32,000 nt of DNA from Schaalia meyeri (GCF_900105015.1 NZ_FNLK01000005.1:427461-459460); one strand, 5' to 3'. Positions 13,238-32,000 are shown, numbered from the stretch's first letter. Numbers and translations are program-made. The notes: a model not told the origin generated them from the letters alone.

Positions 13238-13291
13238 TCGCCCGCACCCCACCGTTTCGCTTTCGCCCCACTCACTGGTTAGGATCGAGGC

Positions 13292-14392
13292 ATGACTCGC
13301 AGTGAAGATGCCCTGGAAACAGCCACCTCCGATGCTTCCCTGGCCCGCTCGAAAGCTCGCAGCGCCGAGATCGACCTGGCCATCGACCGTGATCCCTCGC
13401 GTTTCCGTATCCTGACGGGCGACCGCCCCACGGGACACCTGCATCTGGGCCACTACTTCGGCACCCTGCGGAACCGCGTTCTCCTCCAGGACCGCGGCGT
13501 CGAGACCTGGGTGTTGGTCGCCGACTACCAGGTCATCACGGACCGCGACGGCATGGGCCCCATTCGCGAGCGGGTTCTCGGCCTGGTTGCCGACTACCTC
13601 GCCGCGGGGATTGACCCGGGACGCTCGACGATCTTCAATCACTCGGCGGTGCCGGCGCTCAACCAGCTGATGCTGCCCTTCCTCTCGCTCGTCACCGAGT
13701 CGGAACTGCACCGCAATCCCACTGTGAAGGCGGAACTGGAGGCGGTCGAGGGGCGAGCGATGACCGGCCTCATGCTGACCTACCCCGTTCACCAGGCGGC
13801 GGACATCCTGTTTTGCAAGGCGAACATCGTTCCCGTGGGCCAGGACCAGCTGCCCCACCTGGAGCAGGCTCGCCTGATCGCGCAGCGTTTCGACAAGCGC
13901 TACGGTCGCGCAACGCCCGAGCGCCCCGTGTTCCCCCGTCCCGAGGCCCTCCTGTCCAAGGTGCCGCTGCTGCTGGGCACGGACGGACAGAAAATGTCCA
14001 AGTCTCGCGGAAACACGATCGAGCTGCGTATGAGCGCGGACGAGACCGCGAAGATCCTGAAGAAGGCAAAGACGGACGCCGAGCGTCGCATCACCTTCGA
14101 CCCCGAGGGGCGCCCCGAGGTCTCCAACCTGCTCATGCTCGCCTCCCTGGCGACGGACGAAGATCCGGCGGCCATCGCCGAGCGCGTCGGCGACGCCGGC
14201 GCGGGCGCGCTGAAGTCCCTCGTCACCGAATCCCTTAACGAGATGCTCGCCCCCCTGCGAGCGCGCCGCGCCGAGCTGATCGCTCACGAAGATTACCTGC
14301 TGTCCGTCCTGCATGAGGGCAACGACCGCGCCAACGAGCAGGCGAATCAGACGCTGTCTGACGTTCGTACGGCCATGCGGATGAACTACTAA
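13292..14392 (+). CDS. trpS: tryptophan--tRNA ligase
   Basis: 366 aa. Class-I motifs TGHLHLGH (HIGH) and KMSKS, with TrpRS-like length and blocks. Confidence 0.92.
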   Translation: MTRSEDALETATSDASLARSKARSAEIDLAIDRDPSRFRILTGDRPTGHLHLGHYFGTLRNRVLLQDRGVETWVLVADYQVITDRDGMGPIRERVLGLVADYLAAGIDPGRSTIFNHSAVPALNQLMLPFLSLVTESELHRNPTVKAELEAVEGRAMTGLMLTYPVHQAADILFCKANIVPVGQDQLPHLEQARLIAQRFDKRYGRATPERPVFPRPEALLSKVPLLLGTDGQKMSKSRGNTIELRMSADETAKILKKAKTDAERRITFDPEGRPEVSNLLMLASLATDEDPAAIAERVGDAGAGALKSLVTESLNEMLAPLRARRAELIAHEDYLLSVLHEGNDRANEQANQTLSDVRTAMRMNY

Positions 14393-14417
14393 TCCCTCAC
14401 ACACGATTGGAGGCCTC

Positions 14418-14675
14418 ATGGCTTACGGAAACTTCCCCGAGCATCCGGACGACAGCGTCGGCGGGTGGATGCTCACCCTCTTCATCACAACCATCCCGCT
14501 GGTCGGTTTCATCTACCTGCTGGTGTTGGCCTTCTCCTCCGGCGGTTCCCCCTCCAAGAGAAACTTTGCCCGGGCCCTGTTTATCTGGCAGATCATCGGT
14601 GCCGTCGTCACGATCATCTTGTTCGTTCTTTTCGGAACCGCAATCTGGGCCGCCCTGCAAAACGGCGTGCACTAG
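14418..14675 (+). CDS. small hypothetical membrane protein (2 predicted TM helices)
   Basis: 85 aa. GGAGG sits 5 nt upstream of the ATG. There are two hydrophobic helices (WMLTLFITTIPLVGFIYLLVLAF and LFIWQIIGAVVTIILFVLFGTAIWAAL). A strong terminator follows. Confidence 0.6.
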   Translation: MAYGNFPEHPDDSVGGWMLTLFITTIPLVGFIYLLVLAFSSGGSPSKRNFARALFIWQIIGAVVTIILFVLFGTAIWAALQNGVH

Positions 14676-14691
14676 AGCGCCGCAGGATCTC

Positions 14692-14730
14692 GCGGGGTGG
14701 CACCCATATGGGTGCCACCCCGCACCTTTT
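14692..14730 (+). terminator. intrinsic terminator after trpS and the small membrane gene
   Basis: Perfect 14-bp stem GCGGGGTGGCACCC/GGGTGCCACCCCGC with loop ATAT, then ACCTTTT. Confidence 0.7.
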
Positions 14731-14845
14731 GAGCGGGACGGTGGGCAGCCCCGCTCCGCCGCACGCCTACTTTCACGTCGAGGAGGAACCGGCTGAAATT
14801 TCATGGCCAACCAGCACTTTCGCCTGGGCGTACCCATAGGCTAGT

Positions 14846-16897: not shown

Positions 16898-16907
16898 CGC
16901 CCGCGCG

Positions 16908-16927
16908 GTGTACGGCGCGCCGTACAC
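16908..16927. repeat. perfect 20-bp palindrome GTGTACGGCGCGCCGTACAC just after the glgE stop
   Basis: Self-complementary by inspection and 11 nt past the stop at 16897. No T-tract follows. Confidence 0.6.
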
Positions 16928-17040
16928 TGCGCCCTATTCGCCCATCGATCTGAGACCGGCTCCCGATTTCGCCGGCCAGACGTTAGACTACAGACACCAG
17001 TGAACTGAGCGGTTCACACCACCTGGAGTAAGGAAAATCC

Positions 17041-19236
17041 ATGAGCTGCGAACTTACGCCGATCCCGGTCAATGACGACATCCTCGACGCCGTTGCCTCA
17101 GGCTCCTACTACTCGCCGCACTCCGTGCTCGGCGCGCACCTTGGCGACACGGGGGTCACGATTCGCACGGTCGCCCACCTGGCTGACGCCGTCGACATCA
17201 TCACGCCCACCGGGGCCTACGCCGCCTCCCACGAATACGGAGGCGTGTGGGTTGCAGCCCTGCCCGGCAAGGAGGTTCCCGCCTACCGCGTGTCCGTCAC
17301 CTACGGGGAGGACACTACTGTCCGCGACGACCCCTACCGCTATCTGCCCACCCTGGGCGAGATGGACACTTACCTGATCTCCGAGGGACGCCACGAGAAC
17401 CTCTGGAAGGTCTTGGGCGCGCACGTGAAGACCTACACCGACGAGCTGGGCGAGACCACCGGCACGGCGTTTGCCGTGTGGGCGCCCAACGCGCGCGCCG
17501 TGCGCGTCGTCGGAGAGTTTAACTACTGGGATGGCACAGCCACCTCCATGCGTTCGCTCGGTTCCTCCGGCGTGTGGGAGATCTTCGTCCCCGAGGTCGG
17601 CGTGGGCGCTCGCTACAAGTTCGAGCTCCAAGGTCCCGGCGGCAACTGGTTCCAAAAGGCCGATCCTTTGGCCCGCGCCACGGAGATTCCCCCGGCCACG
17701 GCCTCGGTCGTAACCGACTATTTCCACACGTGGACCGACCAGGAATGGATGGATTCCAGGAAGGATGGCAACGTCCACGGCGGCCCCATGTCCGTCTACG
17801 AGGTGCACGCCGGTTCGTGGCGTCAGGGACTGGGCTATCGCGAGCTGGCCGACGAGCTGGTCCCCTACGTCAAGCAGATGGGATTCACGCACGTAGAGTT
17901 CATGCCGCTGGCCGAGCACCCCTTCGGCGGCTCGTGGGGATACCAGGTGACCTCGTATTTTGCTCCCACGTCGCGCTACGGAACGCCGGACGACTTCCGT
18001 TACCTGGTTGATGCCTTCCACCGCGAGGGCATCGGCGTCATCCTCGACTGGGTGCCCGCACACTTCCCGAAGGACGATTTCGCGCTGGCCCGCTTCGACG
18101 GCACCCCGCTGTACGAGGACCCCGACCCGCTGCGTGGCGAGCACCCGGACTGGGGCACCTACGTGTTCAATTTCGGCCGCCGCGAGGTGCGCAACTTCCT
18201 GGTCGCGAACGCCCTGTACTGGCTGGAAGACTTCCACATTGATGGCCTGCGCGTCGACGCGGTCGCCTCGATGCTCTACCTGGACTACTCGCGCAAGGAC
18301 GGCCAGTGGCGTCCGAACCAGTACGGCGGGCGCGAGAACCTGGAGGCCATCGATTTCATCCAGGAGGCGAACGCGACCGCGTACCGCCGCCACCCAGGCA
18401 TCGTGATGATCGCCGAGGAGTCCACGGCGTGGCCGGGCGTGACCGCTCCGACCAGCGGCGGTGGCCTAGGTTACGGCATGAAGTGGAACATGGGGTGGAT
18501 GAACGACACCCTGCGTTACCTGAGCGAGGATCCGGTGAATCGTCGGTGGCATCACGGCGAGCTGACCTTCTCGCTGGTGTACGCGTTCTCCGAGAACTAC
18601 GTGCTGCCGCTGTCGCACGACGAGGTCGTGCACGGCAAGGGATCGCTCATCTCGAAGATGCCGGGCGATAAGTGGCAGCGTCTCGCCGGCCTGCGTTCCC
18701 TCTACGCCTACCAGTGGAGCCACCCGGGCAAGCAGCTCATCTTCATGGGCCAGGAGATCGGCCAGGAACAGGAGTGGAACGAATCCTACTCCCTGGACTG
18801 GTGGCTCATGGATCAGGAGGGGCACGCGGGGGTGGCGCACCTGGTTGAGCGCCTCAACCGGATCTACACCTCCTCCCCCGCCATGTGGGACGACGACTAC
18901 ACGGGATTCGAGTGGATCGACGCCTCCGACGGCGACCACAACCTGATCTCTTACCTGCGTAAGGGGTCGGACGCCGACGGCAACCGCGAGGTCGTGGTGT
19001 GCGTGTCCAACTTTGCGGGTAATCCGCACGAGGGCTACCGGGTCGGCCTGCCTTTCGGCGGCGAATGGGTGGAGATTATGAACACCGATGCCGAAGAGTT
19101 CGGCGGTTCGGGAGTGGTCAACGTCGGTACGATTATCGCCGAGGACACCCCGTGGAACGGCCGCCCGGTGTCCGCTCAGCTGCGCGTCCCGCCACTGGGT
19201 GCCGTATGGCTGGCGCCCGCCTCGCAGGTGCGCTGA
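17041..19236 (+). CDS. glgB: 1,4-alpha-glucan branching enzyme
   Basis: 731 aa. The ATG is preceded by GGAGTAAGGAAA. Contains the GH13 branching-enzyme blocks [32 protein letters not shown] and [10 protein letters not shown]. Confidence 0.93.
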
Positions 19237-19258
19237 CCGCTTCCTTCCGTTATCAGGG

Positions 19259-19294
19259 ACGAGGCCGGGGCTGGGAAAACAGCTCCGGCCTCGT
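19259..19294. terminator. hairpin between the convergent glgB and thioredoxin-like genes
   Basis: 10-bp stem ACGAGGCCGG/CCGGCCTCGT with a 16-nt loop. There is no clear U-tract on either strand. Confidence 0.4.
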
Positions 19295-19433
19295 TCGCGA
19301 TCATCGCGTGTCGTGCGCGGGTAAACGCCGTCGGGCTTGCAAGAAATCCGCTCGTCCCCGGTCTGTTAGACCGTTCCGATGGTAGCACTTGCGACCCGAT
19401 GAGTTCGCGTCGGGGCCCCTCGCGGCTGCATTC

Positions 19434-20342
19434 TCACATGAGCAGCATCGCCAGGCGCGTGCGCGCTTTTGTCACCTCGGGGGTCGATCCGGCGACGCGG
19501 AAGAGGTCGAGCAGGCGCAGGCGCAGAGCGTCGCGTTCCCGGTCGTCGGTGGCCGATCCGATCAGGTTGAGCAGCGCATCGAAGGCTACGGCGGCGTCGC
19601 CCGCCGCGAAGAGGGCGTCGGCGCGCGCGGCGGGATCCGAGCGGTCGGCGTCGGCGCTGCGCGCCGCGAGGCGCACGCGAGACAGGTGCGCCTTGGCGGC
19701 TTCGTCACGCGGGTTCAGCTCGATGACCTTCTCCCAGCCCGCGATCGCTTCGTCCAGGCGTCCCTCGGCCTCGGCGGAGAGCGGTGCCTCGTGTTCGGGA
19801 GGGATCGGGGCCACCGTATCCGCCGCGGCAACGGCGATGCGCGCCGTTACGCCCATCTGAGCGGCGGCCTCGAGAACCTGTGCAATAACGGGAAGCACCT
19901 GTTCCTTCGCCGCGCTCCCCTGGAAGAGCGGAACGGGGCGTCCACCCACCAGGGCGACGACCGTGGGAACGGCCTGGATTTGGAAGGCCTGTGCGATCTG
20001 CGGGGCCTGGTCGATGTCGATCTCGACCAGCTGGAACGCGCCCGCCTGCTCGCGCGTTATCGCCTCCAGCATGGCCAGGGTCGGCTTCGACTCCAGGGAT
20101 CGGGAGGACCACATGACGAGGACGACCGGGACGGTCTGCGACGTTGACAGGACTCCCTCAAAATCGGCCTCGCCTATAGATGTGATGAGTGGCAGGTGCA
20201 ACCCCTCTCCGGCCGGAGGTGCCGTGGGCGTGTCCTCCCGGGTGAGCGCGGTCGCGCGCGCCGACAGATCGATAGCTCCGTGCGAATCGGCGGGAGTCGG
20301 GGCCGCCTCGGGCGCTGCGGAACGTGAATCTGACGTGTTCAT
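19434..20342 (-). CDS. thioredoxin-fold plus TPR-like co-chaperone-type protein (YbbN/CnoX-like, no CxxC)
   Basis: 302 aa. The thioredoxin-like segment VPVVLVMWSSRSLES has WSSRS in place of WCGPC. The C-terminal half is helical and TPR-like. Confidence 0.8.
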   Translation of the reverse strand: MNTSDSRSAAPEAAPTPADSHGAIDLSARATALTREDTPTAPPAGEGLHLPLITSIGEADFEGVLSTSQTVPVVLVMWSSRSLESKPTLAMLEAITREQAGAFQLVEIDIDQAPQIAQAFQIQAVPTVVALVGGRPVPLFQGSAAKEQVLPVIAQVLEAAAQMGVTARIAVAAADTVAPIPPEHEAPLSAEAEGRLDEAIAGWEKVIELNPRDEAAKAHLSRVRLAARSADADRSDPAARADALFAAGDAAVAFDALLNLIGSATDDRERDALRLRLLDLFRVAGSTPEVTKARTRLAMLLM

Positions 20343-20390
20343 CGTGGTCCTATCTAACTTAAGTTTTCTTCCTACTCGATGATAGGCGTA

Positions 20391-20417
20391 GTCCCCGCGC
20401 CACTTGGTCGCGGGGAC
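20391..20417 (-). terminator. hairpin downstream of the lipoprotein gene
   Basis: GTCCCCGCG/CGCGGGGAC 9-bp stem, 24 nt beyond the stop at 20441. It is mirrored in the right arm at about 31899..31925. Confidence 0.4.
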
Positions 20418-20440
20418 GAGCTCTGCGCTGAGGGTGAAAC

Positions 20441-21439
20441 TCAGCCCGGGCTGCTGGAGGAATCCAGGCTGACCGAGACGATGGTTCGTTCTCCCCCGAC
20501 GACCTGGATGGTTCCGCCGGCGCTCTGCGACGGGATGCGCATGAGGACGGTCGCCAGGTAGTCCACTGTCGCTGATCCCTCCACGCTCGTGCCTGAGGAG
20601 CTGAGCGCCGCCGTATTCCCGGCGAGGCTCATGGTCGCCCCCGCGACTGTCCTCTGGTAGGTGAGGGTGTACTTGAAGTTGGCGGCCACCAGTGCCGATC
20701 CATCCTGCAAGACCAGGCCCGAGATCGGGTAGTCCGACGCTGTCGCGGCAGCCGTCACGGTGCCGGCCGCGCTGACGGACGAATTAATGTCCGCCACGTT
20801 CGACAGGTACAACTTCGTGAACTCATCCGCGACGAATTGAGTGGTGTCTTGGCTGCCGGAGTTCAGCATCGTAATGTACTGCGCCAGAGCCGTGTCGGGG
20901 CTCACGGTGAAGCCGTCGGAGGTGCCGGTGACGTACGCCGATCCGGTGCCGACGGGCGGCAGCGTCAGCTGGGTGCCGCCCAGGAGGCGAGCGTAGTTGG
21001 TCAGCTGATAGTCGGAACGAGCCGAGTCCTGCACGTACACCTGCAGGACCGGCAGGGCTGTAGAGGACGATCCAGAGATGTTGAAGATCGCACGGGGCCA
21101 CGATTCAGAGTTCGTGATCGCCAGCGAGGTGGGGGTGAAGTCGAGGGTCTGCGGAGTCTGCCCCGTCGCACTCGCGAGCGCGTACTGCGCGGTCCGGGTC
21201 GCCAGGGCGCCCTGCGAAACACGCCCAGACAGGTCGGAGGCGTTCAGTGAGCCGTCCGCCTTCGTCATAGCCGTACCGGCCTCACCAAGCACGGAAGAGA
21301 TGCGCTCCAGGTCAAGGTTCGCCGCGCTCTGGGCGTCAGCCTCCGACTGGGCGACAATCTCGCCCGAGCACGCGCTGATCCCGAGGGTAGAGGCCAAGAG
21401 CAGGGTGGCGGTTGCCGTCGCCAGTGTCCGTCGTTTCAT
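20441..21439 (-). CDS. hypothetical lipoprotein (Ser/Thr/Ala-rich, secreted)
   Basis: 332 aa. Signal peptide plus lipobox MKRRTLATATATLLLASTLGISAC. The start overlaps the upstream stop (ATGA at 21436..21439). Confidence 0.8.
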   Translation of the reverse strand: MKRRTLATATATLLLASTLGISACSGEIVAQSEADAQSAANLDLERISSVLGEAGTAMTKADGSLNASDLSGRVSQGALATRTAQYALASATGQTPQTLDFTPTSLAITNSESWPRAIFNISGSSSTALPVLQVYVQDSARSDYQLTNYARLLGGTQLTLPPVGTGSAYVTGTSDGFTVSPDTALAQYITMLNSGSQDTTQFVADEFTKLYLSNVADINSSVSAAGTVTAAATASDYPISGLVLQDGSALVAANFKYTLTYQRTVAGATMSLAGNTAALSSSGTSVEGSATVDYLATVLMRIPSQSAGGTIQVVGGERTIVSVSLDSSSSPG

Positions 21440-22965
21440 CGCCTATCCTCTTCGCCCTCTGTGAGCCAGCCGGACATGATCGACGTCCAGCCTCCGGTCG
21501 CCGAAGCGTCATCGTCGGGGGCCGAGGTCGGTGCGGGTGTCTGCTCGGAGTTTTGGGGACGGGTCACGGGGATCAATCCAGTGTTGAATTCCTGGCCGTC
21601 CACCACGACAATGTGCTCGCCGTTATTGCGGGCTTCGCGCAGTGCGCGACGCGACGGCAGGGTGCGCCCACCCCGAATACCAGACAGATCGATGACGCCG
21701 GTGTCCGTCGTGGCGCGCTCGGGCGGATCCTGATCGATCGGCCCCTGCTCCAGGCCGTGACGACCGCGACGCTTCAGGGTGTCCGTTAACGGATCGGGGA
21801 CGTAATCGTCTTGGCCGCGCTCGGCGACGTCCGGATCGATCGCGCGCTCCGGGTCGTGATGGCCGCGACGCTTCACGGTGTCCCTCAATGGATCGGGAAC
21901 GTAGGCGTCCTGACCGACGGCCTCGGTGCCCGGATCGGGGGTCGCTAACCGCTCGGCCGCTTCCCTCCTGTCCTGATACGAGGCCGGGGGAACGTCGCGA
22001 ATTGCCGTGTCTTCTATGGAAGGCTCCAGGGGTACCACATCCTCGGGGGACGCCGCTAAGCCAGCGGCTGCCCACTCATCACTTTGTTCGGTCTTGTGCT
22101 GCGCGCCCGACGGGCCGCTCATATTTTCTCGCTCCGCTGCCCCGTCGGTATCGGGGGCGGGAGATGATCCACGGTCGGCGGCGACGCGCTCGGCGACTGC
22201 CGCGGAGTTGATCGAGGCGGTTTCAAGGGAATCGGCCTTACGGCGTTCCTCGATGCGCGCGGCACGAATCCTGCGCAAGCGCAGCAGCTGCCAACGCGTC
22301 AGGAACAGCGCGAGCGCGATCAGGGCAAACACGCAGGCGGCAAGGAAGGCGATGATCGCCAGCGTGTTCGTCTGCTCAACCTTCCACGTGAGCGTGAGCG
22401 TCAGGTCGCCCGCGCCGGCCGCGGACACCGCCAGGGCGGACTTTCCGGCCGACACGTTCTCCAGGTCCAAGCTCACGGTTCCCTCGCCGCTGGCCTTCTT
22501 GAACCACATGTCGGAGGAGGCCAGCTGCGACACCAGATCCGCGGACGTGGGTTCCTTCAGGGGCTGGGCGCCCGACTGCACGCCGGACTGCGACGGCCCG
22601 GTCGGTGTCGTATTTCCCGACGAAACGGCCTCGTGTGACTCGGCTTTCAGCTTCTTGCGATCCGACTCCACGCCGATGACCTCGGTGTAGGCCGCGTCGC
22701 CGATCCACCCCTTGACGTCCTGCGTCGTACCGATGCCCAGCGTCACGGCTGCACCCGACTTCGACGTCGCAGTGACTGTCACGTCATCCTTCACGATCGA
22801 CAGCACGTTGCCGCGCGTCATGATCAGATCCGTCGCCGATTCGACCGACGAGACCTGTTGCGTCGGGGGTCGGAGTACGGTCACGCCGAGCAGCCCGACG
22901 AGGACGCATACGAGAGAGACAACGCCCATCGACGCTGCCACCACGTATCGCTTAAGAAATTCCAC
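21436..22965 (-). CDS. hypothetical bitopic membrane protein with an acidic/Arg-rich repeat-containing tail
   Basis: 509 aa. GTG start with GAGGAG 6 nt upstream. TM1 is VVAASMGVVSLVCVLVGLLGV and TM2 is LAIIAFLAACVFALIALALFL. The long low-complexity C-terminal half contains a tandem 33/34-aa repeat. Confidence 0.8.
   Translation of the reverse strand: MEFLKRYVVAASMGVVSLVCVLVGLLGVTVLRPPTQQVSSVESATDLIMTRGNVLSIVKDDVTVTATSKSGAAVTLGIGTTQDVKGWIGDAAYTEVIGVESDRKKLKAESHEAVSSGNTTPTGPSQSGVQSGAQPLKEPTSADLVSQLASSDMWFKKASGEGTVSLDLENVSAGKSALAVSAAGAGDLTLTLTWKVEQTNTLAIIAFLAACVFALIALALFLTRWQLLRLRRIRAARIEERRKADSLETASINSAAVAERVAADRGSSPAPDTDGAAERENMSGPSGAQHKTEQSDEWAAAGLAASPEDVVPLEPSIEDTAIRDVPPASYQDRREAAERLATPDPGTEAVGQDAYVPDPLRDTVKRRGHHDPERAIDPDVAERGQDDYVPDPLTDTLKRRGRHGLEQGPIDQDPPERATTDTGVIDLSGIRGGRTLPSRRALREARNNGEHIVVVDGQEFNTGLIPVTRPQNSEQTPAPTSAPDDDASATGGWTSIMSGWLTEGEEDRR
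21715..21915 (-). repeat. in-frame tandem duplication (99 + 102 nt) inside the membrane-protein gene
   Basis: GQDAYVPDPLRDTVKRRGHHDPERAIDPDVAER (21817..21915) is followed by GQDDYVPDPLTDTLKRRGRHGLEQGPIDQDPPER (21715..21816). Confidence 0.8.
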
Positions 22966-23079
22966 GGTTGCTCCTCATCTCCATGCCCACGCTGAGGGCA
23001 TTATTCAGTCCCCACTCTACGTGCTAACCACAGCAACGACCGTGTTCGCACGCGAGGCAGTGATACATCACATCCATAG

Positions 23080-23376
23080 CTACACCGGTCGAAGCCCGCG
23101 CCGCCAGCATTCGGAGTGCCAGTGGCGGCGCCCATTCACCCCCTGAGGCAGCCCGAAGGGGGTCTCCTCCGGCCATGCCACCACGTGAGCGGTACCCTTC
23201 AGGATCGGGCGCAGGCAGGCCGGACACGTGTACTCCTTGGAGGCACTGGGCAAATGGCGCACTTGGTAGTCCCCGCCGTCGGGACCGCGTTCCGTGCGCG
23301 CCGCAGAGGCGAGGCGGTCCATCTGCAGGGGGCGCGCCTCACCCCACGGTCGCTTCTTGCTGCGTTTACCTCTCAC
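23080..23376 (-). CDS. small conserved Cys/His protein (CPAC ... HWHSEC), function unknown
   Basis: ORF 23080..23400. The GTG at 23376 forms a GTGA overlap with the nagA stop (23373..23375), giving VRGKRSKKRPWGEARP.... I recall similar small actinobacterial proteins being labelled ATP/GTP-binding protein, but I cannot verify this. Confidence 0.6.
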   Translation of the reverse strand: MRGKRSKKRPWGEARPLQMDRLASAARTERGPDGGDYQVRHLPSASKEYTCPACLRPILKGTAHVVAWPEETPFGLPQGVNGRRHWHSECWRRGLRPV

Positions 23377-24581
23377 GCGACTACAGTGCCACGGCGCCAC
23401 ACGCGGTGCACGTTCAGCTGCGCGTCAACCTCGACGACGTCCGCCTTCTTACCGGCGGCGAGCGAACCGATCGTGTCGTCGCCCAGTATGGTGGCACCCT
23501 GGGCGGACGCCATGTAGACGGCATCCACCAGAGGGATGCCGCCGCGGGTGACGGCGACGCGCACGCAGTCCAGCAGGTGCGCAGTGCCTCCAGCGATCGC
23601 GTTGCCCTGGGCGAGGCGCGCAACGCCGTCCCTGACGACGACGTCCTGAGGCCCCAGCGTGTACTCGCCGTCGGGCATGCCCGCGGCGGCCATCGCGTCG
23701 GTAACGAACACGACGTGCTCGCGCCCCACCATCTCGTACACGTCACGCACCAGCGTCGGGTCGACGTGGATCGAATCGCAGATCAGCTCGACGACCGCGC
23801 CGCCGCGCGCCGCGTCCGACAAAAACTCGGCGACCGGACCCGTGTCACGGTGGTGCAGGGGCCGCATGCCATTGAACAGGTGCGTGATCGTTGCCCGAGG
23901 GCCACGCTTTGTCTTCACCTCCGCGAATCGCTCGCGGGAGTATTCCAGCGCCTGGCGCGCCATGACCGAATTGGAGTCCGTGTGGCCCCACGAGGGCAGC
24001 GCTCCCCCATCGATGAGCGCTTCGGCCACAGAACCCGGGCCGTACGCTCCGGGTTTTTCCGGGGCGAGCGTCATCGACAGCGCGTGTCCCTGGCAGTCCT
24101 TGAGCAGTGTCAGCGTTAGGGAAGGATCGGGGTCGATGATGTAGGTCGGATCCTGTGCTCCGCAGCGCTCGTGGGAGACGAAGGGGCCCTCAAAGTGGAT
24201 GCCCGCAATCTCGGAATCGTTCGCCAGCTGGGCCAGCGTCGCGGCACGTCTGCGCAGCACGTCCGCCGAAGCGGTCACGCAGGAGGCAACCAGGGAAGTC
24301 GTCCCGTGGCGGCGATGCTCCATGACGGCCACGAGGGCGGCCTCGGCAGTCTCGGCGTTCGGGAAGGATTCACCGCCTCCGCCGTGGCAGTGAACGTCCA
24401 CCAGGCCGGGCAGGAAGGTCGAATCCGATGCCTCGGGCAGCGCAGCGTCGTAGTTTGACACGGGGCAGATGCGGGTAATGGTAGAGCCGTCGATCTCAAT
24501 AATTCCGTCGTCGACAACGGAATCTTCCAGCACCAGGCGGCCACGCAGCACACAATCAGTCATGTCCTCATTGTGGCACAC
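23373..24581 (-). CDS. nagA: N-acetylglucosamine-6-phosphate deacetylase-type amidohydrolase
   Basis: 402 aa. Metal-binding DVHCHGGGG, plus THLFNGM and VTDAMAAAG blocks typical of NagA. GTG start at 24581, with an alternative ATG at 24563 (MTDCVLRG...). Confidence 0.85.
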   Translation of the reverse strand: MCHNEDMTDCVLRGRLVLEDSVVDDGIIEIDGSTITRICPVSNYDAALPEASDSTFLPGLVDVHCHGGGGESFPNAETAEAALVAVMEHRRHGTTSLVASCVTASADVLRRRAATLAQLANDSEIAGIHFEGPFVSHERCGAQDPTYIIDPDPSLTLTLLKDCQGHALSMTLAPEKPGAYGPGSVAEALIDGGALPSWGHTDSNSVMARQALEYSRERFAEVKTKRGPRATITHLFNGMRPLHHRDTGPVAEFLSDAARGGAVVELICDSIHVDPTLVRDVYEMVGREHVVFVTDAMAAAGMPDGEYTLGPQDVVVRDGVARLAQGNAIAGGTAHLLDCVRVAVTRGGIPLVDAVYMASAQGATILGDDTIGSLAAGKKADVVEVDAQLNVHRVWRRGTVVA

Positions 24582-24589
24582 CTGACAGT

Positions 24590-25692
24590 TCAGCGCCGCT
24601 TCTCAAACAACCAATCTCCCCAGCGCGCCATTTCACGCTGAGCTTCTTCCGCATAGGAGGAGCCTCCCTCGGTGAAGGTAAGGTCACCGCCGGGAGAACG
24701 CGCCGCAACGACCCGTCCGTTCGCAACGACGATGGGGCGGAACATCCCATTCGCCCCAGGACAGATGAGGGCCTCACCAGCCCGGTCGGTCAGGCACGAA
24801 CGGTCACGATACCCAACATGCAGCTCGTCGAAGGAGGGCAGCGCAAACACTGCCCGGGCCTCGTCGCGGCTACGTTCGACAAGGTCATCAATATCGGCCC
24901 GCGCGACGCGCCCCTCACGCGAGATGAGCGGCCGACCGATACTCTCGCCGATCTGGGCCGAACCCGCCAGCGCACGACGCGCCTCGGTGAGCGTCAGCCC
25001 CGCCCACCGAGCAAGGTCCGCAGCATCCACGGGGCCGTGTCCCCACGCGTAGCGGGCGGCCAGGAGCGCGAGCGCCTCCTCGTGCCCGGACTCCCCCTTC
25101 GCGACGCCCGGAGCGCCCGGCAGCTGCCGGGCATCAACGATCAGGTGCTCCCCGCCCCGGAGCGGACCAGAGACGAGCACGCCGTCGAGGAAAAGCCTCT
25201 TGACCAGATGACGTTGCCGCACCCCGCCTACAGCTCCCGAGGTGACGGTTGCGATACCAGCCTCATCCCAGGCGCGGATGACCTCGCTGCGGCTCACACC
25301 CGAGGGTTCTCTCCCAGCAGCTCGAACACCGCCGCCGCGGCGTTCTCGACGAGAGCATCGCTGAGCCCCAACCCCGTCGATTGACGAATCCACGAAGCGT
25401 ATCGGTGGCGCAGCAACCGACGCAGCCAGTGATGATCGCGCGCGCTTGTCACATGCAACGTGTCGCGCATCGGCCAGGATCGGACGAGCTCACCCGAATG
25501 GAAGGACTCGGCGACCTGAGCGCGCGTGACCGCGGTGCAGCGCGCGCCGATCGCCCACGGGATCGCACGCACCATCTGGCCTTGGACAGCGAGCAGCAAC
25601 TCGACGGCGGCCACGGGATCGCTGCCGCGTGTGAGCGGCACCAGCCCCTGGGCGACGATGCGCGCCAGGCTGGTATCGGCCACCGCCACCAT
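24590..25692 (-). pseudogene. AlkZ/YcaQ-like winged-helix DNA glycosylase (DUF1006-type), frameshifted in this copy
   Basis: Split into ORFs 25294..25692 and 24590..25393. The mirror copy at 26633..27736 is one intact 367-aa ORF. The only difference is GGG (25304..25306) here against CCCC (27019..27022) there. Confidence 0.8.
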
Positions 25693-26191
25693 CAGAACAG
25701 CCTGGAGGATGGATCGTCAAAACCGCGCATCGCGTCGTAGTCCAGCACCACGCAGCGAATCCCACGGTCCTCGGCCAGCGTGCGCGCCTGCTTCGTGATC
25801 TCCTGCGCCGCAAAGATCCCCGTCACGTCCCCTAAAAGCGCGTCTCGCCCCAGCAGGGACAGGTAGCGCGTCAGCTGCTCGACGCCGTCGATGCCGCCCC
25901 GACGCTTCACCTCGATCGCCACGTGCCCTCCTTGAGCATCGCGCACCATCAGGTCTACCGGTCCGACCGGCGTCGGGTACTCACGGCGCACCAGCTCCCA
26001 CCCCTCGCCGAGGACCTGAGGAACCTGCTCCGCCAGCAGCTCCTGTAGGTGGGCCTCCACGCCGTCCTTGATCAGCCCCGGATCCACGCCCAGGTTCTCC
26101 GACACGTCAGCGATCACGTCGTGGATGCGGATCACGCAGGCGGTCTGTGACCTGCTTGTCAAGCGTGAACAAGACACGACGACACAAGCTG
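25692..26191 (-). pseudogene. nucS: endonuclease NucS (EndoMS), C-terminal nuclease domain only; the 5' end is cut off at the palindrome centre
   Basis: ...[94 protein letters not shown]...[15 protein letters not shown] matches the NucS C-terminal RecB-like domain as I recall it from Mycobacterium/Corynebacterium NucS. About 75-85 N-terminal residues expected for a ~220-aa NucS are absent. The ORF-track extension to 26276 reads into the opposite arm and is spurious. Confidence 0.8.
26136..26191. other. 56-nt non-palindromic centre of the fold-back
   Basis: GCAGGCGGTCTGTGACCTGCTTGTCAAGCGTGAACAAGACACGACGACACAAGCTG. Only CTTGT (26155..26159) and ACAAG (26169..26173) are cleanly complementary. 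Read on the minus strand it continues the nucS frame. Confidence 0.9.
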
Positions 26192-26633
26192 GTGATCCGC
26201 ATCCACGACGTGATCGCTGACGTGTCGGAGAACCTGGGCGTGGATCCGGGCTGATCAAGGACGGCGTGGAGGCCACCTACAGGAGCTGCTGGCGGAGCAG
26301 GTTCCTCAGGTCCTCGGCGAGGGGTGGGAGCTGGTGCGCCGTGAGTACCCGACGCCGGTCGGACCGGTAGACCTGATGGTGCGCGATGCTCAAGGAGGGC
26401 ACGTGGCGATCGAGGTGAAGCGTCGGGGCGGCATCGACGGCGTCGAGCAGCTGACGCGCTACCTGTCCCTGCTGGGGCGAGACGCGCTTTTAGGGGACGT
26501 GACGGGGATCTTTGCGGCGCAGGAGATCACGAAGCAGGCGCGCACGCTGGCCGAGGACCGTGGGATTCGCTGCGTGGTGCTGGACTACGACGCGATGCGC
26601 GGTTTTGACGATCCATCCTCCAGGCTGTTCTGA
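26192..26633 (+). pseudogene. nucS: nucS fragment, mirror copy with two 1-nt deletions
   Basis: GGG at 26248..26250 (left arm CCCC at 26076..26079) and CC at 26273..26274 (left arm GGG at 26051..26053) break the frame. Only the last 99 codons (26334..26633) remain as an ORF. Confidence 0.8.
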
Positions 26634-27736
26634 TGGTGGCGGTGGCCGATACCAGCCTGGCGCGCATCGTCGCCCAGGGGCTGGTGCCGCTCACACGCGG
26701 CAGCGATCCCGTGGCCGCCGTCGAGTTGCTGCTCGCTGTCCAAGGCCAGATGGTGCGTGCGATCCCGTGGGCGATCGGCGCGCGCTGCACCGCGGTCACG
26801 CGCGCTCAGGTCGCCGAGTCCTTCCATTCGGGTGAGCTCGTCCGATCCTGGCCGATGCGCGACACGTTGCATGTGACAAGCGCGCGCGATCATCACTGGC
26901 TGCGTCGGTTGCTGCGCCACCGATACGCTTCGTGGATTCGTCAATCGACGGGGTTGGGGCTCAGCGATGCTCTCGTCGAGAACGCCGCGGCGGCGGTGTT
27001 CGAGCTGCTGGGAGAGAACCCCTCGGGTGTGAGCCGCAGCGAGGTCATCCGCGCCTGGGATGAGGCTGGTATCGCAACCGTCACCTCGGGAGCTGTAGGC
27101 GGGGTGCGGCAACGTCATCTGGTCAAGAGGCTTTTCCTCGACGGCGTGCTCGTCTCTGGTCCGCTCCGGGGCGGGGAGCACCTGATCGTTGATGCCCGGC
27201 AGCTGCCGGGCGCTCCGGGCGTCGCGAAGGGGGAGTCCGGGCACGAGGAGGCGCTCGCGCTCCTGGCCGCCCGCTACGCGTGGGGACACGGCCCCGTGGA
27301 TGCTGCGGACCTTGCTCGGTGGGCGGGGCTGACGCTCACCGAGGCGCGTCGTGCGCTGGCGGGTTCGGCCCAGATCGGCGAGAGTATCGGTCGGCCGCTC
27401 ATCTCGCGTGAGGGGCGCGTCGCGCGGGCCGATATTGATGACCTTGTCGAACGTAGCCGCGACGAGGCCCGGGCAGTGTTTGCGCTGCCCTCCTTCGACG
27501 AGCTGCATGTTGGGTATCGTGACCGTTCGTGCCTGACCGACCGGGCTGGTGAGGCCCTCATCTGTCCTGGGGCGAATGGGATGTTCCGCCCCATCGTCGT
27601 TGCGAACGGACGGGTCGTTGCGGCGCGTTCTCCCGGCGGTGACCTTACCTTCACCGAGGGAGGCTCCTCCTATGCGGAAGAAGCTCAGCGTGAAATGGCG
27701 CGCTGGGGAGATTGGTTGTTTGAGAAGCGGCGCTGA
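26633..27736 (+). CDS. AlkZ/YcaQ-like winged-helix DNA glycosylase (intact copy)
   Basis: 367 aa. The ATG overlaps the nucS stop (TGATG). The N-terminal AVQGQM resembles the Q-x-Q catalytic motif I recall for AlkZ-like enzymes. The C-terminal part ends LPSFDELHVGYRDRS. Confidence 0.8.
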   Translation: MVAVADTSLARIVAQGLVPLTRGSDPVAAVELLLAVQGQMVRAIPWAIGARCTAVTRAQVAESFHSGELVRSWPMRDTLHVTSARDHHWLRRLLRHRYASWIRQSTGLGLSDALVENAAAAVFELLGENPSGVSRSEVIRAWDEAGIATVTSGAVGGVRQRHLVKRLFLDGVLVSGPLRGGEHLIVDARQLPGAPGVAKGESGHEEALALLAARYAWGHGPVDAADLARWAGLTLTEARRALAGSAQIGESIGRPLISREGRVARADIDDLVERSRDEARAVFALPSFDELHVGYRDRSCLTDRAGEALICPGANGMFRPIVVANGRVVAARSPGGDLTFTEGGSSYAEEAQREMARWGDWLFEKRR

Positions 27737-27744
27737 ACTGTCAG

Positions 27745-28953
27745 GTGTGCCACAATGAGGACATGACTGATTGTGTGCTGCGTGGCCGCCTGGTGCTGGA
27801 AGATTCCGTTGTCGACGACGGAATTATTGAGATCGACGGCTCTACCATTACCCGCATCTGCCCCGTGTCAAACTACGACGCTGCGCTGCCCGAGGCATCG
27901 GATTCGACCTTCCTGCCCGGCCTGGTGGACGTTCACTGCCACGGCGGAGGCGGTGAATCCTTCCCGAACGCCGAGACTGCCGAGGCCGCCCTCGTGGCCG
28001 TCATGGAGCATCGCCGCCACGGGACGACTTCCCTGGTTGCCTCCTGCGTGACCGCTTCGGCGGACGTGCTGCGCAGACGTGCCGCGACGCTGGCCCAGCT
28101 GGCGAACGATTCCGAGATTGCGGGCATCCACTTTGAGGGCCCCTTCGTCTCCCACGAGCGCTGCGGAGCACAGGATCCGACCTACATCATCGACCCCGAT
28201 CCTTCCCTAACGCTGACACTGCTCAAGGACTGCCAGGGACACGCGCTGTCGATGACGCTCGCCCCGGAAAAACCCGGAGCGTACGGCCCGGGTTCTGTGG
28301 CCGAAGCGCTCATCGATGGGGGAGCGCTGCCCTCGTGGGGCCACACGGACTCCAATTCGGTCATGGCGCGCCAGGCGCTGGAATACTCCCGCGAGCGATT
28401 CGCGGAGGTGAAGACAAAGCGTGGCCCTCGGGCAACGATCACGCACCTGTTCAATGGCATGCGGCCCCTGCACCACCGTGACACGGGTCCGGTCGCCGAG
28501 TTTTTGTCGGACGCGGCGCGCGGCGGCGCGGTCGTCGAGCTGATCTGCGATTCGATCCACGTCGACCCGACGCTGGTGCGTGACGTGTACGAGATGGTGG
28601 GGCGCGAGCACGTCGTGTTCGTTACCGACGCGATGGCCGCCGCGGGCATGCCCGACGGCGAGTACACGCTGGGGCCTCAGGACGTCGTCGTCAGGGACGG
28701 CGTTGCGCGCCTCGCCCAGGGCAACGCGATCGCTGGAGGCACTGCGCACCTGCTGGACTGCGTGCGCGTCGCCGTCACCCGCGGCGGCATCCCTCTGGTG
28801 GATGCCGTCTACATGGCGTCCGCCCAGGGTGCCACCATACTGGGCGACGACACGATCGGTTCGCTCGCCGCCGGTAAGAAGGCGGACGTCGTCGAGGTTG
28901 ACGCGCAGCTGAACGTGCACCGCGTGTGGCGCCGTGGCACTGTAGTCGCGTGA
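27745..28953 (+). CDS. nagA: NagA-type amidohydrolase, mirror copy
   Basis: 402 aa, identical to the product of 23373..24581. Confidence 0.85.
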   Translation: MCHNEDMTDCVLRGRLVLEDSVVDDGIIEIDGSTITRICPVSNYDAALPEASDSTFLPGLVDVHCHGGGGESFPNAETAEAALVAVMEHRRHGTTSLVASCVTASADVLRRRAATLAQLANDSEIAGIHFEGPFVSHERCGAQDPTYIIDPDPSLTLTLLKDCQGHALSMTLAPEKPGAYGPGSVAEALIDGGALPSWGHTDSNSVMARQALEYSRERFAEVKTKRGPRATITHLFNGMRPLHHRDTGPVAEFLSDAARGGAVVELICDSIHVDPTLVRDVYEMVGREHVVFVTDAMAAAGMPDGEYTLGPQDVVVRDGVARLAQGNAIAGGTAHLLDCVRVAVTRGGIPLVDAVYMASAQGATILGDDTIGSLAAGKKADVVEVDAQLNVHRVWRRGTVVA

Positions 28954-29245
28954 GAGGTAAACGCAGCAAGAAGCGACCGTGGGGTGAGGCGCGCCCCCTG
29001 CAGATGGACCGCCTCGCCTCTGCGGCGCGCACGGAACGCGGTCCCGACGGCGGGGACTACCAAGTGCGCCATTTGCCCAGTGCCTCCAAGGAGTACACGT
29101 GTCCGGCCTGCCTGCGCCCGATCCTGAAGGGTACCGCTCACGTGGTGGCATGGCCGGAGGAGACCCCCTTCGGGCTGCCTCAGGGGTGAATGGGCGCCGC
29201 CACTGGCACTCCGAATGCTGGCGGCGCGGGCTTCGACCGGTGTAG
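28950..29245 (+). pseudogene. small Cys/His protein, mirror copy, frameshifted
   Basis: GGGG at 29183..29186 against CCCCC at 23139..23143 in the left arm. The ORF stops prematurely at 29189. Confidence 0.7.
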
Positions 29246-29359
29246 CTATGGATGTGATGTATCACTGCCTCGCGTGCGAACACGGTCGTTGCTGTGGTTA
29301 GCACGTAGAGTGGGGACTGAATAATGCCCTCAGCGTGGGCATGGAGATGAGGAGCAACC

Positions 29360-30884
29360 GTGGAATTTCTTAAGCGATACGTGGTGGCAGCGTCGATGGG
29401 CGTTGTCTCTCTCGTATGCGTCCTCGTCGGGCTGCTCGGCGTGACCGTACTCCGACCCCCGACGCAACAGGTCTCGTCGGTCGAATCGGCGACGGATCTG
29501 ATCATGACGCGCGGCAACGTGCTGTCGATCGTGAAGGATGACGTGACAGTCACTGCGACGTCGAAGTCGGGTGCAGCCGTGACGCTGGGCATCGGTACGA
29601 CGCAGGACGTCAAGGGTGGATCGGCGACGCGGCCTACACCGAGGTCATCGGCGTGGAGTCGGATCGCAAGAAGCTGAAAGCCGAGTCACACGAGGCCGTT
29701 TCGTCGGGAAATACGACACCGACCGGGCCGTCGCAGTCCGGCGTGCAGTCGGGCGCCCAGCCCTGAAGGAACCCACGTCCGCGGATCTGGTGTCGCAGCT
29801 GGCCTCCTCCGACATGTGGTTCAAGAAGGCCAGCGGCGAGGAACCGTGAGCTTGGACCTGGAGAACGTGTCGGCCGGAAAGTCCGCCCTGGCGGTGTCCG
29901 CGGCCGGCGCGGGCGACCTGACGCTCACGCTCACGTGGAAGGTTGAGCAGACGAACCGCTGGCGATCATCGCCTTCCTTGCCGCCTGCGTGTTTGCCCTG
30001 ATCGCGCTCGCGCTGTTCCTGACGCGTTGGCAGCTGCTGCGCTTGCGCAGGATTCGTGCCGCGCGCATCGAGGAACGCCGTAAGGCCGATTCCCTTGAAA
30101 CCGCCTCGATCAACTCCGCGGCAGTCGCCGAGCGCGTCGCCGCCGACCGTGGATCATCTCCCGCCCCCGATACCGACGGGGCAGCGGAGCGAGAAAATAT
30201 GAGCGGCCCGTCGGGCGCGCAGCACAAGACCGAACAAAGTGATGAGTGGGCAGCCGCTGGCTTAGCGGCGTCCCCGAGGATGTGGTACCCCTGGAGCCTT
30301 CCATAGAAGACACGGCAATTCGCGACGTTCCCCCGGCCTCGTATCAGGACAGGAGGGAAGCGGCCGAGCGGTTAGCGACCCCCGATCCGGGCACCGAGGC
30401 CGTCGGTCAGGACGCCTACGTTCCCGATCCATTGAGGGACACCGTGAAGCGTCGCGGCCATCACGACCCGGAGCGCGCGATCGATCCGGACGTCGCCGAG
30501 CGCGGCCAAGACGATTACGTCCCCGATCCGTTAACGGACACCCTGAAGCGTCGCGGTCGTCACGGCCTGGAGCAGGGGCCGATCGATCAGGATCCGCCCG
30601 AGCGCGCCACGACGGACACCGGCGTCATCGATCTGTCTGGTATTCGGGGTGGGCGCACCCTGCCGTCGCGTCGCGCACTGCGCGAAGCCCGCAATAACGG
30701 CGAGCACATTGTCGTGGTGGACGGCCAGGAATTCAACACTGGATTGATCCCCGTGACCCGTCCCCAAAACTCCGAGCAGACACCCGCACCGACCTCGGCC
30801 CCCGACGATGACGCTTCGGCGACCGGAGGCTGGACGTCGATCATGTCCGGCTGGCTCACAGAGGGCGAAGAGGATAGGCGATGA
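29360..30884 (+). pseudogene. membrane protein, mirror copy broken by five 1-nt deletions
   Basis: Fragmented into ORFs 29360..29677, 29616..29849, 29816..30001, 29989..30306 and 30246..30884. The deletions are at 29614-16, 29761-63, 29840-41, 29956/57 and 30272-75. Confidence 0.8.
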
Positions 30885-31875
30885 AACGACGGACACTGGC
30901 GACGGCAACCGCCACCCTGCTCTTGGCCTCTACCCTCGGGATCAGCGCGTGCTCGGCGAGATTGTCGCCCAGTCGGAGGCTGACGCCCAGAGCGCGGCGA
31001 ACCTTGACCTGGAGCGCATCTCTTCCGTGCTTGGTGAGGCCGGTACGGCTATGACGAAGGCGGACGGCTCACTGAACGCCTCCGACCTGTCTGGGCGTGT
31101 TTCGCAGGGCGCCCTGGCGACCCGGACCGCGCAGTACGCGCTCGCGAGTGCGACGGGGCAGACTCCGCAGACCCTCGACTTCACCCCCACCTCGCTGGCG
31201 ATCACGAACTCTGAATCGTGGCCCCGTGCGATCTTCAACATCTCTGGATCGTCCTCTACAGCCCTGCCGGTCCTGCAGGTGTACGTGCAGGACTCGGCTC
31301 GTTCCGACTATCAGCTGACCAACTACGCTCGCCTCCTGGGCGGCACCCAGCTGACGCTGCCGCCCGTCGGCACCGGATCGGCGTACGTCACCGGCACCTC
31401 CGACGGCTTCACCGTGAGCCCCGACACGGCTCTGGCGCAGTACATTACGATGCTGAACTCCGGCAGCCAAGACACCACTCAATTCGTCGCGGATGAGTTC
31501 ACGAAGTTGTACCTGTCGAACGTGGCGGACATTAATTCGTCCGTCAGCGCGGCCGGCACCGTGACGGCTGCCGCGACAGCGTCGGACTACCCGATCTCGG
31601 GCCTGGTCTTGCAGGATGGATCGGCACTGGTGGCCGCCAACTTCAAGTACACCCTCACCTACCAGAGGACAGTCGCGGGGGCGACCATGAGCCTCGCCGG
31701 GAATACGGCGGCGCTCAGCTCCTCAGCACGAGCGTGGAGGGATCAGCGACAGTGGACTACCTGGCGACCGTCCTCATGCGCATCCGTCGCAGAGCGCCGG
31801 CGGAACCATCCAGTCGTCGGGGGAGAACGAACCATCGTCTCGGTCAGCCTGGATTCCTCCAGCAGCCCGGGCTGA
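30881..31875 (+). pseudogene. lipoprotein, mirror copy broken by four 1-nt deletions
   Basis: The ATG at 30881 goes out of frame after ISACS (GG at 30955-56 against CCC at 21363-65). Three further deletions at 31726, 31784-85 and 31813 restore the frame near the C-terminus. Confidence 0.8.
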
Positions 31876-31973
31876 GTTTCACCCTCAGCGCAGAGCTCGT
31901 CCCCGCGACCAAGTGGCGCGGGGACTACGCCTATCATCGAGTAGGAAGAAAACTTAAGTTAGATAGGACCACG

Positions 31974-32000
31974 ATGAACACGTCAGATTCACGTTCCGCA
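31974..32000 (+). CDS. first 9 codons of the thioredoxin-like/TPR gene, mirror copy (partial, runs off the window)
   Basis: ATGAACACGTCAGATTCACGTTCCGCA encodes MNTSDSRSA, identical to the start of 19434..20342. Confidence 0.7.

Follow-up and report, generated by a model that had tools for sequence, protein, structure and literature searches.

A long inverted repeat in a draft contig of Schaalia meyeri is very probably a fold-back read built into the assembly

Does the chromosome of Schaalia meyeri carry a near-perfect palindrome, or did this structure arise when the genome was sequenced and assembled? The question is raised by a stretch of 32,000 nt from a draft assembly (BioSample SAMN04489715), hereafter the window, which turns back on itself inside nucS, the gene encoding the actinobacterial mismatch-repair nuclease. 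In bacteria, a long palindrome whose arms are separated by a short spacer is unstable, being subject to SbcCD-type processing. An earlier, sequence-only reading of the window had described the palindrome and favored a technical origin, and the analysis presented here bears on both claims.

When the window was compared with itself by blastn, positions 20316-32000 aligned with 32000-20316 at 99.59% identity over 11,704 columns (E = 0), and a repeat search of the window resolved the palindrome into nine blocks of 117-2,167 nt, each of them 100% complementary. The left arm (20316..26135, minus strand) is the reverse complement of the right arm (26192..32000, plus strand), with a centre of 56 nt between them (26136..26191, plus strand), and the match extends to the final base of the window. 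The arms are distinguished by 13 single-base indels and 0 substitutions, the right arm being the shorter at 12 of the 13, and the sum of paired positions, which is 52,327 at the centre, has dropped to 52,316 by the edge. These results bear out the geometry proposed from the sequence, i.e., a palindrome of about 11.7 kb at 20316-32000 in which position x pairs with about 52326-x, with a drift of a few nucleotides. The identities listed in support of it also hold: both nagA ORFs, said to give identical 402-aa products, lie inside the perfect block of 2,167 nt; the off-frame ORF pair 25490-25813 and 26512-26835 lies inside a perfect block of 749 nt; and the intergenic stretch 20341..20460, described as mirrored base for base, belongs to a segment (20316-20503) that is the exact mirror of 31813-32000, a perfect block reaching the last base of the window. 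The last 27 nt (31974..32000, plus strand) encode MNTSDSRSA, the first nine codons of the thioredoxin-like gene at 20342-20316, confirming that this gene restarts there facing the other way. The window does not show where the palindrome ends on its outer side, and the right arm, which runs off the window, probably stops at the contig end.

Up to the turn, the window is ordinary S. meyeri chromosome. The unique flank (1..20315) carries two tRNA-Lys genes, a tRNA-Leu gene, mnmA, ETF genes, a trpS-like gene, glgE, glgB, and a thioredoxin/TPR gene. The left arm contains the 5' end of the thioredoxin-like gene, genes for a 332-aa lipoprotein-like protein and a 509-aa membrane protein, an Rv1322-like gene, nagA (23373-24563, minus strand, in its 396-aa GenBank form), an AlkZ-like gene, and 444 nt from the 3' end of nucS. 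Window positions 1-17771 are 100.000% identical to the closed genome CP066065.1 (2.03 Mb); positions 7041-26135 contain one difference in 19,095 nt, and the whole of 1-26135 shows 0 substitutions and one single-base difference. Since the first 26,135 bases differ at a single base, the window and CP066065.1 are, as judged by their sequences, the same strain of S. meyeri. The left arm, which follows CP066065.1 collinearly with one base different and, as far as about 26132, is collinear with 11 related genomes as well, is a genuine single-copy chromosome segment. At its inner end, nucS is represented by its C-terminal 147 codons (25692..26135, minus strand), which hold the Pfam domain NucS_C only, without NucS_N; the native gene would go on for about 250 nt further, whereas the window turns back at 26135/26136.

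The conserved ORFs of the left arm are intact, with the exception of the AlkZ-like gene. The sole difference between window 1-26135 and CP066065.1 is a one-base deletion at 25304 (minus strand), a G4 run read as G3, which breaks this gene up into two ORFs (132 and 267 aa). The gene is intact in the right arm (26633..27736, plus strand; 367 aa, identical to QQC44266.1), in CP066065.1, and in a native copy within the same draft (SDR80228.1). The difference between the arms at this position is the reverse of what is expected, with a frameshift in the left and an intact right; either the left arm carries an error in the G run or the culture or read set was heterogeneous there.

The right arm is an inverted copy of the left arm with a low consensus quality. 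Compared with CP066065.1, it contains 12 single-base deletions in 5,809 nt and 0 substitutions, and 11 of these deletions fall in G/C homopolymer runs of 2-5. The remaining 26,135 nt contain one deletion (Poisson p = 2.5e-17; Fisher p = 1.4e-8), so that the indel density is 2.1 per kb in the right arm vs. 0.04 elsewhere, an error rate about 50 times that of the rest of the window, and it climbs toward the centre. The frameshifts of conserved genes come solely from these indels: in the left arm, they affect AlkZ, and in the right arm, the 3' part of nucS, the 509-aa gene, and the 332-aa gene. The right-arm copy of the 509-aa gene (29351..30884, plus strand) has been split up by deletions, its pieces lying in three frames, as revealed by the frame changes in tblastn, and one of its ORFs (30246-30884) matches exactly the deposited protein SDR65374.1 (locus tag SAMN04489715_0581). 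The right-arm nagA copy (27763..28953, plus strand) is annotated in GenBank with 396 aa.

The position and the length of the 56-nt centre stand as first described, but it is not an unrelated spacer. Aligned with the native nucS of the same strain, it gives 44 matches, 2 mismatches, 10 insertions, and 2 deletions (z = 7.0), and in the opposite orientation z drops to 1.9; contig L081 yields the same native-nucS pattern. The centre thus corresponds to the 44-48 nt of native nucS that immediately precede the left-arm end in the gene, read in the direction of the right arm, plus about 10-12 inserted bases, with an indel noise of about 25% relative to native nucS. A search for adapters in the centre (ONT top, bottom, and rapid; SMRTbell; Nextera; TruSeq) gave scores of 4-11, i.e., background, vs. 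23 for the native sequence. From these alignments, the centre is native nucS, and neither foreign DNA nor an adapter. On the reference, the left part ends at L082:19095 and the right arm sets in on the opposite strand 44-48 nt further on, at about 19139-19143, and a 3-nt CAG/CTG is all the microhomology visible at the noisy junction. The centre of a real palindrome should be polished like unique sequence because the reads that cross it align uniquely.

The sequence-only reading had pointed to related genomes as the place to look for a full-length nucS. In CP066065.1, the gene is complete (230 aa), and the chromosome is continuous through it into DUF2550 and the atp operon, in the order glgB, trx-like, 332 aa, 497/509 aa, Rv1322-like, nagA, AlkZ, nucS, DUF2550, atpCDGA, without a palindrome. 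The native order was found in 11 related genomes, which run past the turn point. It also holds in six independent metagenome or SRA contigs that include nucS, a portion of the arm region, or both. In L081 and L084, nucS is linked to the atp genes; L085 extends from AlkZ across the junction into the native nucS sequence; and in L089-L091, the arm genes keep their native arrangement. L084 and L085, both from SRA runs, are native across the junction. None of CP066065.1, the 11 relatives, and the metagenome or SRA contigs spanning the nucS junction contains the fold-back junction.

The source draft itself also contains the region in native form, NucS being complete there (SDR80259.1). The neighboring accessions follow the native order, with the 332-aa protein (SDR80085.1), the 509-aa protein (SDR80126.1; _1082), nagA (SDR80201.1), and AlkZ (SDR80228.1) on one side and DUF2550 (SDR80299.1), AtpC (SDR80369.1), and AtpD (SDR80396.1) on the other. 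The contig of the window, 459,460 nt long, carries SDR65252-65374 and includes nagA twice (SDR65324.1 and SDR65342.1) and the broken right-arm ORFs _0580 and _0581. The spacing of locus tags suggests that the native copy sits on another contig, and the draft layout, as rebuilt from accession order and locus tags, points to a region that is present three times.

We consider it very probable that the palindrome is a sequencing/assembly artefact, namely a fold-back chimeric read with a native loop that was built into the contig, because the closed genome of the same strain lacks it and the same draft contains the native junction, and because errors, all of them indels, are about 50 times as frequent in the right arm and the centre as in the rest of the window. 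The palindrome is not a biological feature of S. meyeri. The technical origin favored earlier is therefore supported by the closed genome, by the native junction in the draft, and by the asymmetry of errors, and among the candidates then proposed, the fold-back chimeric long read fits the native nucS loop. In such a scenario, one or very few DNA molecules would have been fold-back chimeras. A strand over nagA-AlkZ-nucS would have stopped about 44-48 nt past the present window position 26135, looped onto itself, and been copied or ligated back along its own length, perhaps by a snap-back or template-switch event during library preparation or at the polymerase. A single long read, on what was presumably a long-read platform, would then contain the native sequence, a short native loop, and the same sequence inverted. 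The assembler would have used this read to extend the contig off its true path, placing the nucS-DUF2550-atp operon continuation elsewhere in the assembly. With few reads behind them, the inverted arm and the loop would have kept indels of the raw-read type, whereas polishing brought the genuine arm to reference quality; the consensus quality indeed suggests a low read support for the junction and the inverted arm.

A missed SMRTbell adapter, or a nanopore read of template and complement that was not split, would give the same overall palindromic read structure, with the adapter later erased or garbled by the consensus. Reads of this kind are known from the literature (PMC6218980; PMC12338684 and PMC13141652 discuss them), and the centre is adapter-sized and very noisy. 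However, 44 of its 46 aligned native bases match the nucS of the same strain in order, the adapters score at background level, and the start of the right arm lies 44-48 nt past the point where the left arm ends, whereas the arms of such a read should share one fragment end. Neither an adapter between the arms nor a common fragment end was found, and the missed hairpin adapter proposed by the sequence-only reading is unlikely. Alternatively, in a few cells, a break within nucS could have been capped by a hairpin, or a replication fork could have switched templates there; the rare molecule formed in vivo would then have been caught by a long read and propagated by the assembler. The opposite strand, the short native loop, and the minimal microhomology of the junction are shared with chimeras formed in vitro, from which the sequence alone gives no way to tell it, and the coexistence of the native junction in the same read set is as expected for a minority species. 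Nevertheless, fold-back reads formed in vitro amount to 0.2-7% of reads (PMC12338684, PMC13141652), so that every long-read data set should contain one per locus by chance; the junction appears in no independent data set, those covering the nucS junction being native, and a folded-back circular chromosome is not viable or stable and would be at best a dead-end molecule. We regard this origin as highly unlikely; if true, it would show a palindrome caught while forming spontaneously in an actinobacterium.

The presence of the palindrome in a deposited assembly, with nearly identical arms, might also be taken as a genuine clonal inverted duplication of 11.7 kb or longer truncating nucS, as the sequence-only reading had envisaged in case the structure was real. 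This is extremely unlikely, given that the closed genome of the same strain lacks it, that a full-length nucS persists in its native context within the same draft, that the centre is garbled, and that palindromes of this kind are unstable. Moreover, rearranged neighbors were found in none of the independent assemblies, CP066065.1, the 11 relatives, and the junction-covering contigs all being native, and the arms show, in place of mutation-like differences and an ordinary consensus quality, 0 substitutions and frameshifting homopolymer deletions distributed 12 to 1 between them. Covalently closed hairpin telomeres, as in Borrelia, give mirrored contig ends when long reads traverse them in long-read assemblies, and the turn could in principle mark the end of a linear replicon. 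In this case, the probability is negligible: the turn falls within nucS, in conserved coding sequence, and the closed 2.03-Mb genome and all the relatives continue straight into the atp operon, a collinearity that refutes a replicon end at this site.

As a fold-back artefact, the palindrome tells nothing about the organism, and its importance is one of data hygiene. It provides a worked example of a fold-back contig artefact that is recognizable without the reads, the signs being indel-only differences concentrated in one arm, a garbled spacer made of the next native bases, the lack of the structure in a same-strain reference, and a native copy, the third of the region, at another place in the assembly. 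Genome scans for long palindromes should apply such a filter first. The artefact has already entered the public protein databases, where SDR65367.1 (105 aa) and SDR65374.1 (212 aa) are listed as two proteins but stem from the single broken gene for the 509-aa protein, and GenBank also holds duplicated nagA and AlkZ entries and one truncated or chimeric NucS ORF as products of it.

Biological fold-back inversions arise by template switching or from hairpin-capped breaks, and long palindromes are SbcCD-sensitive in E. coli. The structure described here has the same junction geometry as such inversions, with a short asymmetric native loop and little or no microhomology, but it differs from them in being missing from the closed genome of the same strain and from the relatives, in the sequencing-type errors of one arm and the loop, and in the native junction that is present alongside in the same assembly. 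Palindromic reads produced by amplification or by missed SMRTbell adapters cause inverted duplications in assemblies (PMC6218980, Pacasus), and our case shares with them the arm-loop-inverted-arm structure, the spurious inverted duplication, and an assembly fragmented at the site; unlike them, its centre is free of adapter and nothing points to amplified DNA. Our case also resembles the fold-back chimeric reads described by Heinz, Meyerson and Li (Breakinator; PMC12338684), whose share of ONT genomic-DNA reads is about 0.55-0.6%; inverted-repeat chimeras make up 0.18-7.33% of ligation-library reads, microbial standards included (PMC13141652). As in these reads, the second half is the same locus on the opposite strand, with a breakpoint offset within the approximately 200 bp that defines the class (PMC12338684), no adapter lies at the junction, the source is bacterial genomic DNA, and independent sequence of the same genome (CP066065.1, SDR80259.1, L084, and L085) lacks the junction. 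The difference is that the fold-back is seen here after assembly, in a deposited contig, rather than in raw reads.

The segment 20316-32000 of the window can be aligned to its reverse complement over 11,704 columns with 99.59% identity (E = 0), which bears out the near-perfect palindrome described in the sequence-only reading. A repeat search of the window resolves it into nine 100% complementary blocks of 117-2,167 nt with single-base slips in between. The outermost perfect block (20316-20503 / 31813-32000) extends to the final base of the window, and therefore the outer boundary of the palindrome is not visible. The finer claims of that reading also held: according to the repeat blocks and the ORF listing, the nagA ORFs (402 aa each) and the off-frame ORF pairs are identical between the arms, the intergenic stretch that was said to equal its mirror lies in a perfect repeat block, and the thioredoxin-like gene restarts within the last 27 nt of the window. 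In a base-level alignment, the two arms differ at 13 sites outside the centre, all of them single-base indels with no substitution, and at 12 of these it is the right arm that lacks a base.

The left arm (20316-26135) carries, on the - strand, the start of a thioredoxin/TPR gene, a 332-aa lipoprotein-like gene, a 509-aa gene, nagA, an AlkZ-like DNA glycosylase gene, and the part of nucS that encodes the C-terminal domain. The frameshifts are arm-specific, so that different genes are broken in each arm: AlkZ falls into two pieces (132 and 267 aa) in the left arm and is unbroken (367 aa) in the right one (26192-32000), whereas the left arm keeps the 3' part of nucS, the 509-aa gene, and the 332-aa gene whole and the right one has them in fragments. 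The 402-aa nagA ORF had no exact-protein match, the annotated nagA being 396 aa long with another start codon, and neither had the ORF 6446-7777, which overlaps an ordinary tRNA-Leu(TAG) gene (6454-6536, - strand). The 509-aa gene has no family match in Pfam or NCBIfam and is labeled "transmembrane protein" in UniRef; it contains internal repeats, around 100 nt in length and diverged to about 78-79% identity (21706-21937; mirror 30383-30614), which were not reported by Tandem Repeats Finder. It is annotated as 497 aa in the closed Schaalia meyeri genome CP066065.1, owing to a different choice of start codon.

A scan of species-representative genomes placed the window in the Schaalia/Pauljensenia group. 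The window is collinear with all 11 relatives compared from about 13.5 kb to about 26,132, and beyond this point every one of them runs into the N-terminal half of nucS, while the window folds back instead. The whole nucS gene, which the sequence-only reading had proposed to look for in related genomes together with its neighbors, is present in a metagenome contig with 99.4% identity (L081), where the atp operon is followed by DUF2550 and full-length nucS, and in CP066065.1 (2,033,037 bp), which was reached through exact-protein matches. Window positions 1-17771 (17,771 nt) show no difference from this closed genome (100.000% identity), and positions 7041-26135 (19,095 nt) show a single one, a G missing from a G4 run at 25304. 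The absence of substitutions over 26 kb indicates that both sequences come from the same strain. The gene order in CP066065.1 is glgB, trx-like, 332 aa, 497/509 aa, Rv1322-like, nagA, AlkZ, nucS (230 aa), DUF2550, atpC, and atpD onwards, and no inverted copy of the arm genes was found there. The native order is also present in five more contigs from independent SRA or metagenome data (L084, L085, and L089-L091), and a 30-mer adjoining the junction gave no match in one scan of metagenome contigs. A literature search on CP066065, GCA_016127995, SRR4180832, and SRR4180835 returned no papers.

The two arms differ sharply in quality. Over its 5,809 nt, the right arm lacks 12 single bases relative to CP066065.1 and carries no substitutions; 11 of these deletions fall within G or C runs of 2-5 bases. 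The other 26,135 nt of the window contain one difference, so that the contrast amounts to about 50-fold (Poisson p = 2.5e-17; Fisher p = 1.4e-8). The error density climbs toward the junction, with deletions at 26274 and 26250 and then the loop. The 56-nt centre (26136-26191) corresponds, on the + strand, to the stretch of native nucS located directly before the stopping point of the left arm, with 44 matches, 2 mismatches, 10 inserted bases, and 2 deleted bases (z = 7.0 against shuffles), while the opposite orientation gives a background-level score (z = 1.9); the same orientation and pattern were obtained against L081. The centre is the worst-quality stretch of the window, although the centre of a real palindrome should be polished like unique sequence, because reads crossing it align uniquely. 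Its similarity to six ONT, SMRTbell, Nextera, and TruSeq adapter sequences was no greater than background. The only microhomology seen at the junction, a 3-nt CAG/CTG, is too short and noisy to carry weight. We also considered a perfectly symmetric palindrome built on the native 8-nt palindrome CAGATCTG, with its centre collapsed by the consensus, but this reading is less parsimonious and was rejected because 44 of 46 native bases are accounted for by the centre in a single orientation only. A thin consensus with deletions in its G/C homopolymers, plus a loop left unpolished and rich in insertions, would presumably fit PacBio CLR data, nanopore being also possible.

The source draft (SAMN04489715) holds a third copy of the region. 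SDR65374.1 (SAMN04489715_0581, Schaalia meyeri, 459,460-nt contig) is the deposited entry for the broken ORF 30246-30884 of the right arm, and SDR65367.1 (_0580, 105 aa, a cluster member) is taken to be the neighboring fragment. In the layout of the draft, reconstructed from the GenBank accession series and locus tags, the contig of the window encodes MnmA (SDR65252), GlgB (SDR65301), the only trx-like copy (SDR65305), the 332-aa (SDR65310) and 509-aa (SDR65314; _0569) proteins, nagA (SDR65324 and SDR65342), the 367-aa AlkZ (SDR65336), and the broken fragments of the 509-aa gene (SDR65367 and SDR65374). A second accession series (SDR80085-SDR80396) follows the native gene order: 332 aa (SDR80085), 509 aa (SDR80126; _1082), nagA (SDR80201), AlkZ (SDR80228), full-length NucS of 230 aa (SDR80259), DUF2550 (SDR80299), AtpC (SDR80369), and AtpD (SDR80396). 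Since the 513 genes between _0569 and _1082 exceed the capacity of a 459-kb contig, the native copy would sit on a different contig. Thus, the draft has three copies of a region that occurs once in the closed genome: the left arm, which is genuine, its noisy inverted counterpart, and a native copy running into the atp operon. This is the expected outcome of a chimeric read creating a false branch at which the assembly breaks.

Proteins derived from the artefact have entered public databases. SDR65374.1 (212 aa) matches exactly a right-arm piece of the 509-aa gene (29351-30884), SDR65367.1 appears to be the adjoining piece, and nagA and AlkZ are deposited twice, once per arm. The chimeric 194-aa NucS ORF (25692-26276) was absent from the protein collection, possibly with another start called.

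At 25304 (mirror 27022), it is the left arm, and not the right one, that departs from the reference, with G3 versus G4 and a frameshifted AlkZ. The G4 form and an intact 367-aa AlkZ are found in the right arm, CP066065.1, the native copy of the draft (SDR80228.1), and SRR4180832 (L084), while G3 is seen again in L085, a short contig from SRR4180835. RefSeq carries the G3-derived AlkZ fragments WP_278246121.1 and WP_278246122.1. The Logan contigs L084, L085, L087, and L088 (1-5 kb), from the consecutive runs SRR4180832, SRR4180833, and SRR4180835, show no substitutions against the window, and these runs may belong to the same strain or project. If they are the same strain, 25304 may be a homopolymer-calling hot spot; it could also reflect real heterogeneity. 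Either way, the artefact verdict is unaffected.

Elsewhere in the window, an 80-nt perfect direct repeat corresponds to two identical, ordinary tandem tRNA-Lys(CTT) genes (2827-2900 and 2934-3007). A 32-nt perfect palindrome, GCGGGGTGGCACCCATATGGGTGCCACCCCGC (14692-14723), followed by ACCTTTT, lies upstream of glgE, just past the stop codon of an 85-aa ORF. It looks like a strong hairpin terminator; a simple terminator scan at 14.7 kb made no call there. It is also present in CP066065.1, because this part of the window is 100% identical. Outside the window, two NucS relatives from metagenomes carry a foreign N-terminus on NucS_C: P0002, with a MerR-type HTH joined at ...EAVWTVQADKTDDKL, nearly the same nucS point as the fold-back of the window, and P0010, with a UPF0102 fusion. 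Both are probably assembly chimeras on short contigs.

Taken as a real and clonal feature of the strain, the palindrome is effectively excluded by the native arrangement of the closed genome, the low quality of the right arm and centre, and the native junction within the draft itself. A hairpin telomere of a linear replicon is excluded, since the closed genome reads straight through the turn site. It is improbable that a read captured a rare fold-back molecule that had arisen in vivo, in view of how often fold-backs are known to form in vitro, and such a molecule would be a dead end anyway. The technical origin favored by the sequence-only reading is therefore supported by a palindrome without counterpart in the same-strain genome, a native junction in the same draft, and an error-laden right arm, and we conclude that the palindrome is not a real genomic feature. 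Among the candidate origins named there, a fold-back chimera fits, while a missed adapter is disfavored, given that the centre consists of native sequence and that there is an offset between the arms.

The evidence best supports a fold-back chimeric long read whose short loop is native sequence and which an assembler took up and built into the assembly. In structure, the native sequence extends to position 19095 of the reference (L082:19095), switches to the opposite strand at a point 44-48 nt beyond, and returns through a noisy loop into a second copy of these 5.8 kb that is riddled with deletions. Snap-back, which we infer as a detail, template switching, or strand ligation, in library preparation or sequencing, could produce such a fold-back. 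The palindrome is of low interest save as a data-quality flag. Artefacts of this kind are on record: inverted duplications in assemblies have been traced to palindromic reads arising from amplification or missed SMRTbell adapters (PMC6218980), and inverted-repeat chimeras account for 0.18-7.33% of reads in ligation libraries, microbial standards included (PMC13141652). Among ONT reads of genomic DNA, about 0.55-0.6% are fold-backs, the criterion being breakpoints on opposite strands no more than 200 bp apart, and these often lack a retained adapter (PMC12338684).
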